Virus genome (UHGV): UHGV-0143097
From: a virus
Reading direction: 5' to 3' (one strand)
Length of the DNA stretch: 23,240 nt
Within the stretch, counting starts at the first letter, position 1. Each line of letters begins with the position of its first letter. The position numbers and the translations under genes are program-made. The notes below the pieces were generated by a model. That model was not told the DNA's origin, searched no databases, and saw nothing but the letters and a program-made list of their open reading frames with translations. This document shows positions 14,925 to 16,314 of the stretch, piece after piece.

Positions 14925-15018
14925 GATGGTTAAAGAATACTGTAGGTATTTTATTTTGTAAATACTCAAGGTATTTATTTTGGTGAAATAATGATAAGCA
15001 AATGAATACAAAGGATAT
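14925..15018 (-). promoter_or_regulatory. Candidate OL/pL: three ATAC-N5-(G/A)TAT operator-like sites with a leftward promoter
   Basis: Sites ATACTGTAGGTAT (14937-14949), ATACTCAAGGTAT (14962-14974) and ATACAAAGGATAT (15006-15018), each followed by a T-rich tract; on the minus strand -35 TTTACA, 17-bp spacer, -10 TATTCT overlap sites 1 and 2. Confidence 0.4.
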
Positions 15019-15105
15019 TTATTTTTTCGGCGTCTGCTTGTTCAGTGCTTTTTATGCGGGATATGTGAAGTGGATCCCGATAGCTATTGCTGCCGGGATT
15101 ATGGG

Positions 15106-15495
15106 TTAGTCAGCGAAGGTTAAGACGAGAATTACCTTAATGATGTCTGCTACAACAGACACGGCCATAGATAAACCAAAGACGATCCAAGCCATAGAGA
15201 TGTCTTCACTACCATCGTATAGAGTTCCGTAATCACTGGTATAAGGCGTAAATGTCGCGCCTTGATACAATAGGTATAAGCTTGATCCATAGAGGATAAA
15301 TGCAGATATCCCTTGTATTGCTATGATCACCAGAATCATGAAACGAGCTGATCTATGCGCCCAAGCCTGGCTTATTTTTTCTGATAGAGATTTCGCAAGA
15401 AAAGCATGCGCTAAGCCGTAAATTGTCGAGATTGCCAACATCCCAAAAAAGCTTGCTATAGCGGTTCCAACCATAAGCGCCCCTTGCGTGATCAA
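15106..15495 (-). CDS. Small integral membrane protein translationally coupled to cI (rexAB-slot gene)
   Basis: 129-aa ORF with about four hydrophobic segments; its start codon overlaps the cI stop (ATGA); more AT-rich than cI by eye; not recognisable as RexB. Confidence 0.75.
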   Translation of the reverse strand: MITQGALMVGTAIASFFGMLAISTIYGLAHAFLAKSLSEKISQAWAHRSARFMILVIIAIQGISAFILYGSSLYLLYQGATFTPYTSDYGTLYDGSEDISMAWIVFGLSMAVSVVADIIKVILVLTFAD

Positions 15496-16208
15496 ACCAG
15501 CCTTAGTTTTGTCTCAATTGCAACGCCTATAATCTTGCAGTTTCCATTGATTGGCACGAGAGGCCATGCAGGATTAAGTCCCTTGAGGTATTTATTTCCG
15601 CCGTCGATTATCAGCTTCTTGAATGTTGCTTCGTTAGAGTCAGAAAGTTTTGCTATGACCAAGCTGCCGTTGACCGCCTCCCTTCCGGTATCGAAAAGAA
15701 CGAATGTTCCCTCTGGAATGCTTAACCCAACCGGTGCCGTCATTGAATCACCTTCCACTTTAAGCCAGAACGCATTACCTTGAATATGCGCGTCAGACTC
15801 AAGCCAAACATCTATGTCTTTAATGGTGTATGGTTCGCATGCTTCACACCACGAGCCAGCCTGGATACTGCTTAACACCGGATACCTCTTTCCTGCTCTG
15901 TATTCCCCTGCATACCTTACGTTGGCATCGCTCTTAAGGCTTTCTGCCTGTTCTGCAACCTTGGCAGCAATTGACTGGCTAAAATCAGCAATTGAGACTT
16001 GCAACAACCGTGCAAAACCAGATGCAACCTCAACGTTTAGCGCGTTTCTGCCATTAAGATAATGCCCTACCGCTCCTTGGGTGATACCCAGTTCATCAGC
16101 GATTGAGTATTGGGTTATTCCCAATTCTTTCTTTTTTGACTCATACAAAGCCTTAAGCCGCTTAGCGTCTTCGAGCTGTTCTGTCGTCAGTGATTTTTTA
16201 TTTTCCAT
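15492..16208 (-). CDS. cI: CI immunity repressor (lambda-like HTH plus S24 peptidase domain)
   Basis: N-terminus LTTEQLEDAKRLKALYESKKKELGITQ aligns with lambda CI; C-terminal EGDSMTAP ... TFKKLI autocleavage domain; no RBS before the ATG, consistent with a leaderless pRM transcript. Confidence 0.9.
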   Translation of the reverse strand: MENKKSLTTEQLEDAKRLKALYESKKKELGITQYSIADELGITQGAVGHYLNGRNALNVEVASGFARLLQVSIADFSQSIAAKVAEQAESLKSDANVRYAGEYRAGKRYPVLSSIQAGSWCEACEPYTIKDIDVWLESDAHIQGNAFWLKVEGDSMTAPVGLSIPEGTFVLFDTGREAVNGSLVIAKLSDSNEATFKKLIIDGGNKYLKGLNPAWPLVPINGNCKIIGVAIETKLRLV

Positions 16209-16314
16209 AGCTTAATTCTAATAGCTAAGGTACTTAAACTAAAAATACCCTGAGTATTGATTGATTTGAATACCTGTAGTATTCTTTGTTCATGGTTAAT
16301 AACGGAGAGTGCAT
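16209..16314. promoter_or_regulatory. OR region with divergent pRM/pR and operator-like sites
   Basis: Sites ATACCCTGAGTAT (16245-16257) and ATACCTGTAGTAT (16270-16282), 25 bp centre to centre; rightward promoter -35 TTGATT (16257-16262), 17 bp, -10 TATTCT (16280-16285); a leftward -10 TAGAAT sits just before the cI ATG. Confidence 0.5.

Follow-up and report, generated by a model that had tools for sequence, protein, structure and literature searches.

The two non-coding stretches on either side of the cI operon in the window (the whole 23,240-nucleotide stretch of UHGV virus genome UHGV-0143097 that was analyzed) very probably hold the cI/Cro genetic switch of a lambdoid prophage of the HK620/HK140 type, with six predicted operators. 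These share the 17-bp consensus nAATAC-N5-GTATTn and would be bound by cI dimers and Cro dimers. The switch is already known, a status that rests on the GenBank features of HK620 (AF335538), in which operators and promoters are annotated. What the present analysis, all of it computational, adds is a likely correction of the third left operator (OL3) against that reference annotation, together with comparative evidence for the pairing of recognition helix and operator, namely a set of 25 species that links (T/S)QGAVGHY to AATAC-N5-GTATT and would extend the lambda-family code to base pairs 3 and 4; it adds nothing else. Its main worth is as a check that a reader of raw sequence can recognize a phage genetic switch.

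The immunity region and its predicted operators

The ORF list and Pfam matches delimit a lambdoid early region at about 13.6-17.6 kb of the window (table 1). cI (minus strand) and cro (plus strand) are divergent and separated by 106 bp, which is the gene arrangement of a lambdoid switch. Downstream of cI in the immunity operon, at the position occupied by rexAB in lambda, lies a homologue of hkaS, which matches phrog_6534 (function unknown) and for which searches of Pfam and PADLOC gave zero matches. Past cro, the next genes in the window are rusA and Q; a DLP12-like ybcO'-rusA-quuD-nmpC arm stands downstream of cro in place of cII-O-P. Because cII, O, and P are missing from the prophage in the window, the switch may have ceased to govern a viable phage.

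Table 1. Genes, promoters and predicted operators of the immunity region (positions in the window)
Feature	Position	Strand	Basis and remarks
sieB	13666-14247	+	ORF list/Pfam
N antiterminator, first gene of the pL operon	14263-14538	-	Pfam N_peptide, E 2.3e-15; N in HK620 and HK140 records
nutL, boxA GCTCTTTAAC and boxB hairpin, downstream of pL	14847-14888	-	Mapped from HK620 nutL and HK140 boxA features
pL	-35 TTTACA 14962..14957, 17-bp spacer, -10 TATTCT 14939..14934	-	Promoter scan; HK620 pL feature
OL1, 17 bp, GAATACTGTAGGTATTT	14935-14951 (core 14937-14949, ATACTGTAGGTAT)	unstranded	Covers pL -10; HK620 OL1 position
OL2, AAATACTCAAGGTATTT	14960-14976 (core 14962-14974, ATACTCAAGGTAT)	unstranded	Overlaps pL -35; HK620 OL2 position
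Distal left operator, TGAATACAAAGGATATT	15004-15020 (core 15006-15018, ATACAAAGGATAT), centre 15012	unstranded	44 bp from OL2
hkaS homologue, 122-aa predicted membrane protein	15106-15474	-	ORF list; hkaS in HK620, hypothetical protein in HK140
cI repressor, 238 aa, recognition helix TQGAVGHYLNGRN	15492-16208	-	HTH_3 and Peptidase_S24
Candidate pRM -10, TAGAAT	16215-16220	-	Inferred from sequence; 6 nt upstream of cI ATG
OR3, weak, TAATAGCTAAGGTACTT (ATAG...GTAC)	16219-16235 (core 16221-16233, ATAGCTAAGGTAC)	unstranded	HK620 OR3 position
OR2, AAATACCCTGAGTATTG	16243-16259 (core 16245-16257, ATACCCTGAGTAT)	unstranded	Adjoins pR -35; annotated in HK620
pR	-35 TTGATT 16257-16262, 17-bp spacer, -10 TATTCT 16280-16285	+	Sequence reading; HK620 pR feature
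OR1, GAATACCTGTAGTATTC	16268-16284 (core 16270-16282, ATACCTGTAGTAT)	unstranded	Overlaps pR -10; annotated in HK620
cro, 64 aa, lambda-Cro family, helix Q-C-A-I-S-K	16315-16509	+	Pfam Cro PF09048, E 3.6e-26

The 13-bp pattern ATAC-N5-RTAT gives 14 strand-hits in the 23 kb, where 100 dinucleotide-preserving shuffles of the window lead to an expectation of 0.95 +/- 1.1, with a maximum of 4, and 10 of the 14 fall within the two control regions on either side of the cI operon. When every inverted dyad with arms of 4 or 5 nt and spacers of 0-12 nt was counted without bias, AATA-N7-TATT, ATAC-N5-GTAT, and AATAC-N5-GTATT took the top ranks. Since the 15-mer AATAC-N5-GTATT has all four of its copies in the control regions, there is no competing dyad. 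The full motif is a palindrome, AATAC-N5-GTATT, of 15-17 bp with the geometry of the lambda operator, whose two-fold axis would pass through the central base pair as it does in lambda. Individual sites are palindromic over 15-19 bp, OL2 being a perfect 19-bp palindrome (TAAATAC-N5-GTATTTA, 14959-14977).

Between cI and cro, three tandem pseudo-palindromic sites overlap pR and pRM, with centres at 16227, 16251, and 16276 (spacings of 24 and 25 bp), and at the opposite end of the immunity operon a second cluster overlaps pL, with centres at 14943, 14968, and 15012 (spacings of 25 and 44 bp); both are features of the lambdoid arrangement. All five sites listed by the original prediction are found where it had placed them. 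It had counted only two sites between cI and cro, however, overlooking the weak OR3, and the spacing of about 25 bp that it proposed holds for the right side and for OL1-OL2 but not for the step from OL2 to the third left site. The 13-bp pattern also occurs at 15265-15277 and 15306-15318, inside the hkaS homologue. As operators these two matches were rejected: they are without the flanking A/T of the 15-bp motif, rank 109 and 45 with the matrix described below, and are missing from the diverged hkaS homologue of lineage L067. They are probably due to chance and come from Tyr-Leu-Leu-Tyr codons. There is also a stray site at 19373.

A half-site position weight matrix (PWM), built from the perfect-core sites of other lineages only (L067-L080), was run over the 23,220 positions of the window. 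OL1 ranked first (score 23.4), followed by OR2, OR1, and OL2 in ranks 2, 3, and 4, although the choice of training sites with a perfect core introduces some circularity into the core part of these scores. The distal left site (11.5 bits) ranked 6 and OR3 ranked 12; both lie within the upper tail of the background, in which other sites reach 12.2 and 10.3, and they count as significant only because of their location.

Conservation was read from 65-66 close relatives in IMG/VR. Of the 60 arm columns, only 2 show variation, in each case a singleton, compared with 9 of the 30 columns in the N5 centres and 37 of the 174 other intergenic columns. The contrast between arms and all other columns (2/60 vs. 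46/204) has a Fisher p of 2.4e-4, which ignores kinship among the relatives and, because these are phylogenetically non-independent, overstates significance. At OL1, three variants among 65 relatives alter N5 and one singleton alters an arm (GTATT to GTACT); the OL2 polymorphisms of close relatives are in N5 only, and the 10 arm columns of the distal left site are invariant in the 65 relatives. In relatives with 75-87% identical cI, the intergenic DNA has diverged, yet AATAC-N5-GTATT still stands at three unchanged distances from the ATG, its N5 being different. From these sequence comparisons, the operator arms appear to be under purifying selection. One may ask whether the matches could instead have arisen by chance in AT-rich promoter DNA, or be sites of a host factor. 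The region is indeed AT-rich, and the outer arms also serve as -10 (TATTCT) and -35 elements; conservation of part of each site could therefore follow from promoter constraint alone. We nevertheless consider this highly improbable, as none of the 100 shuffles reaches 14 matches, as the arms lying outside any promoter hexamer are equally invariant, and as the motif tracks the recognition helix of the repressor across genera and is missing beside homologous repressors with other helices.

Taking the sites as operators, their relation to the promoters can be examined. In the interval 14500-16700, the promoter scan returned pL as the sole promoter-like match. pR agrees with the consensus at 8 of 12 positions, which is just under the scan threshold and explains why the scan did not list it; we retained it, despite this score, because of its position and of the HK620 annotation. 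As had been proposed, the -10 TATTCT is common to the two outward promoters and the sites overlap promoter elements. A -10-like hexamer located 6-7 nt before the cI ATG is kept in relatives, and no Shine-Dalgarno sequence is present there. Because the end of TAGAAT lies 6 nt ahead of the ATG and no Shine-Dalgarno sequence accompanies it, the pRM transcript is predicted to be leaderless and pRM to be activated from OR2. Measured from the cI ATG, the OR centres are at 19, 43, and 68 bp (19, 42, and 66 bp in lambda).

On the right, OR1 covers the -10 of pR and OR2 touches its -35. In the proposed mechanism, OR2, centred 43 bp upstream of the leaderless cI start, would occupy the place at which cI acts to activate pRM in lambda, and the weak OR3 would cover the -10 of pRM. 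On the left, OL1 and OL2 cover the -10 and -35 of pL, and a weaker distal site follows 44 bp beyond OL2. We infer that the proteins actually bind these sites, that pRM is activated, and that cooperativity and OL-OR looping may come into play. The lambda-like OL/OR architecture of the original prediction was upheld in every respect that can be tested computationally (layout, geometry, proteins, and specificity).

Repressor, Cro and the pairing of helix and operator

cI is colinear with lambda cI (3bdn; E 2e-52; 43% identical), and the alignment is free of gaps over residues 3-90, so that lambda numbering can be applied. The recognition helix reads QGAVGHY where lambda has QSGVGAL, which agrees with the lambda-like N-terminal fold and different recognition helix that had been suggested. 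Gln33, Gln44, Asn52, Asn55, and Lys4 are kept as in lambda, and the changed residues are Ser45 (to Gly), Gly46 (to Ala), Ala49 (to His), and Leu50 (to Tyr). Residues A117-G118, S155, and K197/K198 correspond to A111-G112, S149, and K192 of lambda, and the alignment shows no variation at them; the predicted protein, which is 100% identical to HK140 cI, thus appears to possess the machinery for RecA-stimulated self-cleavage. In the searchable literature, we found no binding experiments (footprint, gel-shift) on this repressor. The Cro protein is likewise colinear with its lambda counterpart (1cop; E 4.7e-19), with the helix Q-C-A-I-S-K instead of Q-S-A-I-N-K, and in the partner Cro proteins of Enterobacterales relatives Q-x-A-I-S-K is kept and H2 alone varies.

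In the 17-bp register, the half-site n-A-A-T-A-C-n-n shares base pairs 2, 5, and 6 with the lambda half-site T-A-T-C-A-C-C-G and differs from it at base pairs 3 and 4. The three shared bases are retained together with the residues that read them, and both proteins have a substitution immediately after the conserved Gln in their recognition helix (Ser45 to Gly in cI, Ser28 to Cys in Cro). An "evolutionary code" for Cro was reportedly formulated by Hall, Lefevre and Cordes in 2005. In the Cro code, Gln H1 goes with A2, Ala H3 with A5, and Lys H6 with C6, and Ser H2 of lambda Cro contacts base pairs 4 and 5 (PMC6649833). Q-C-A-I-S-K and the half-site nAATACnn agree with this published code at H1, H3, and H6, and a change at H2 in both cI and Cro fits the H2 contact to base pairs 4/5. 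The predicted operator specificity of cI and Cro therein differs from that of lambda at half-site base pairs 3 and 4, and the two together offer a candidate orthogonal lambda-like repressor/operator pair.

The link between helix and operator is backed by covariation across genera. We used GTDB contigs, with one genome per species, and accepted as sites those with at most 1 mismatch. Among repressors with (T/S)QGAVGHY, 23 of 25 have at least two sites, with starts about 73, 49, and 26 bp ahead of the ATG, whereas none of the 55 homologues with other helices has two or more (p = 4e-18, kinship ignored). In 16 of the 25 species, a third, degenerate right site (AATAG, AATAA, or ATTAC) stands at the matching distance from the ATG, and the N5 sequence varies from lineage to lineage. 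The carriers of (T/S)QGAVGHY include Lelliottia, Siccibacter, Enterobacter, Tatumella, Lonsdalea, Serratia, Pantoea, Providencia, Proteus, Pectobacterium, Kluyvera, Scandinavium, Yersinia, and even Microbulbifer. Another helix class, TKGAVSHWLN (phage epsilon34 type), pairs with TATAC-N5-GTATT in other genomes, in agreement with the operator consensus proposed for epsilon34.

Phage Fostie, whose cI is 62% identical and has the helix TQSAVGHY, shows looser xTAC-N5-GTAx sites 24 bp apart, an observation that is consistent with this pairing and adds little to it.

The third left site and the T-rich tails

The left cluster is where our reading departs from the reference annotation. The HK620 record sets OL3 at the equivalent of 14981-14997 (TGGTGAAATAATGATAA), 21-22 bp from OL2, and extends tIMM over 14994-15024. 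Followed to the letter, it would make the distal site at 15004-15020 the hairpin of the tIMM terminator and no operator, with the real OL3 closer to OL2. Besides the record itself, a terminator would be in keeping with the palindrome and the T-rich run behind it, which close the cI-hkaS unit, and an OL2-OL3 spacing of 21 bp is known in Lonsdalea, Pantoea, and Pectobacterium relatives (20 bp in lambda). This assignment is nonetheless unlikely. The position annotated as OL3 contains no motif, has a score of -34 bits, equal to the background mean (rank of about 12,000), and is polymorphic in relatives, whereas the arms of the site centred on 15012 are invariant. The proposed tIMM hairpin is made of A/U only and is missing from the minimum-energy RNA fold, and the terminator scan gave zero matches at the distal left site, so that neither fold nor scan supports the terminator reading. 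Moreover, Tatumella (two species), Serratia, Kluyvera, Pantoea, and lineages L067 and L068 also have a weak site 45 bp from OL2; the five other genera that carry it show different genes, or none, between it and cI. Given the PWM score, the invariant arms, the recurrence in other lineages, and the unfolded hairpin, we favor 15012, where the original prediction had placed the third left operator, as its probable position over the OL3 of HK620. The distal site may also act both as operator and as terminator, since the two roles are compatible and neither excludes the other.

With the third operator placed at 15012, the left cluster can be compared across lineages. The distance from OL2 to the third site is elsewhere 21 bp (Lonsdalea, Pantoea, and Pectobacterium) or 30 bp, or else the third site is missing, and the left array of Yersinia has four sites with spacings of 24, 21, and 24 bp, so that its second and fourth sites are 45 bp apart. 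The distal site of the window may be the remnant of a four-site array like that of Yersinia. Its distance would put it in the rotational phase of an adjacent site, two helical turns further out. The gap between OL2 and the distal site is unconstrained in sequence, and an A-run of polymorphic length brings the spacing to 44 or 45 bp in relatives. By eye, this gap contains an IHF-like sequence with two mismatches to the consensus WATCAANNNNTTR. We put forward, tentatively and with some doubt, that a non-lambda left layout with a weak third operator 44-45 bp past OL2 is conserved across genera and that the OL3 annotation of HK620 is wrong. If this is true, the distal site could set a different rule of cooperativity or looping for the autoregulation of pRM.

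The three left sites also share a one-sided T-rich tail, which produces a 21-nt direct repeat in three copies, spaced by 25 and 44 bp. The left sites had been described as direct repeats followed by T-rich tracts rather than as palindromes; tail and repeat are real, but the sites are true palindromes to which a tail has been added. Such tails might turn the left sites into a tandem direct-repeat element that has a separate function, be it an A/T tract resembling an UP element of pL, a bending site, or a host-factor site. This would account for the three copies of the repeat and for the maintenance of the tails after OL2 and after the distal site in L067 and L068, and the OL2 tail, judging from its position, would fall in the zone of UP-element action, about 45-57 bp upstream of the pL start. 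On the other hand, the OR sites have no tails, nor does OL1 in L067 and L068; in L069-type relatives, other A/T sequence replaces them; the length of the A-run is polymorphic in relatives; and the 21-nt repeat could simply come from duplication of an operator. An independent function of the tails is thus somewhat unlikely, and we retain the left sites as palindromic operators.

Comparison with known systems

Over positions 14880-16520, the window is 100% identical to HK140, 98.7% identical to HK620 (AF335538), and 98.4-99% identical to mEpX2, HK630, HF4s, and several Stx phages, and HK620 and HK140 have the same cI, hkaS, and cro genes. The HK620 record annotates 17-bp OL1-3, OR3, OR2, and OR1 as well as pL, pR, tIMM, nutL, and nutR. 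When mapped via the alignment, its OL1, OL2, OR3, OR2, and OR1 all fall exactly on the sites described here, and the arms of these five are identical to those of the window, which is what membership of the HK620 immunity type implies. The record differs in having an OL3 where no motif occurs and in labelling the distal site as part of tIMM. The original prediction spoke of a distinct immunity type. It is distinct from that of lambda but it is not new, being the described immunity of HK620, HK140, and mEpX2, whose operators have been in GenBank since 2001. The reference for HK620 is said to be Clark et al. 2001, J Mol Biol 311:657. The immunity module occurs, at a coverage of at least 80%, in 146 of 5,426 complete E. 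coli genomes.

A more distant likeness is seen with Salmonella phage epsilon34, for which the operator consensus WTACRAWWTGTAT has been proposed (PMC2629481). It has the same core, ATAC-N5-GTAT, and a related repressor helix, TKGAVSHWLNGR. It differs in the N-terminal domain of the repressor, which is shorter and of a different type (about 34% identity overall), in its Cro partner, in flanks that read TATAC and not AATAC, and in having only two annotated OR sites, which are widely spaced.

The window does not carry lambda immunity: neither TATCACCGC operators nor a QSGVGAL helix are present, and AATAC and QGAVGHY are found instead, with a cI that is 43% identical. Compared with lambda, the half-site is nAATACnn instead of TATCACCG, OL2 and the third left site are 44 bp apart instead of 20 bp, OL2 and OR2 are separated by 1.28 kb instead of 2.36 kb, and a 122-aa membrane protein takes the place of rexAB. 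The plan of the switch is otherwise lambda-like, with 17-bp odd-symmetric operators in two triplets, O1 over the -10 and O2 over the -35, an apparently leaderless cI mRNA, and conservation of half-site bases 2, 5, and 6 (A, A, and C) together with the residues that read them.

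Operator-like matches beyond the control regions

Scoring of the window with a half-site matrix built from operators of other lineages identified one top operator-like site beyond the immunity region, located within the DLP12-like arm, where it precedes the start of the holin gene by about 70 bp; it is probably a chance match. Two shorter matches lie inside the hkaS-like ORF, without the bases that flank the core in the 15-bp motif; neither is kept in the diverged hkaS homologue of L067, and, judging from the sequence, they probably occur by chance, arising from Tyr-Leu-Leu-Tyr codons. 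The sequence annotated as OL3 in HK620 scores −34 bits with the same matrix, shows no likeness to the operator motif and varies among close relatives at the equivalent window position, and this OL3 looks to have been positioned from lambda-like spacing rather than from sequence.

Features of the window and of the phage Fostie locus
Feature	Coordinates	Strand	Remarks
GC-rich hairpin GCCCCTCGAATTGAGGGGC	14591-14609		leader, just upstream of N start codon
OL3 feature of HK620 reference	14981-14997 (AF335538 7888-7904)
122-aa predicted membrane protein, hkaS homologue	15106-15474	-	phrog_6534
Perfect ATAC-N5-GTAT and one-mismatch copy	15265-15277 and 15306-15318		inside hkaS-like ORF, 41 bp apart
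nutR boxA CGCTCTTTAAC	16516-16526		after cro
Operator-like site CTCAATACCTGAGTTATTCAC	19363-19383		12.2 bits, rank 5 by matrix
Fostie (L003), missed cro	~1230-1406	-
Fostie (L003), annotated ORF	1322-1504	+

Operator arrays and Cro partners in other loci

Yersinia vastinensis and Y. massiliensis (L100/L101) carry four operator-like sites in the left region, 82-151 nt past the cI stop and spaced by 24, 21, and 24 bp, an array that may be ancestral to the 25+45 layout as well as to the 25+21 one. In Microbulbifer spp. (L144, L146, and L147), the repressors, at only 43-45% identity, keep the QGAVGHY helix together with AATAC-N5-GTATT sites, and the partner Cro is of another, non-lambda type (helix TQGMVSAW), which suggests, from these sequences, that the same operator is read by an unrelated partner. 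Phage Fostie (PP925832) encodes a lambda-type cro (MNQITLGEYVKEHGQVKAGAALGVTQIAISKALRAGR...) that is unannotated in its record, and the annotated plus-strand ORF, which spans the operator region, is probably spurious.

The flanks of the immunity region and the hkaS-like gene

The HK140-like sequence stops right past cro and the nutR boxA (~16520-16660), and gives way to the DLP12-like arm with its truncated ybcO/DUF1364 gene, rusA, ylcG, quuD, an nmpC-type porin gene, and essD; none of the 5,426 complete E. coli genomes searched covered this junction at 80% or more. The window prophage has no cII, O, P, or nin genes and therefore looks replication-defective. On the other side, the hairpin of the N leader is separate from nutL (14847-14888) and may, by analogy with the RNase III site of the lambda N leader, act as a processing or translational control element. 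The hkaS-like ORF apparently shares a transcript with cI, and its product had no match in Pfam or PADLOC. The gene, which occupies the position held in lambda by rexAB, is a candidate for an exclusion or conversion function expressed from the prophage.
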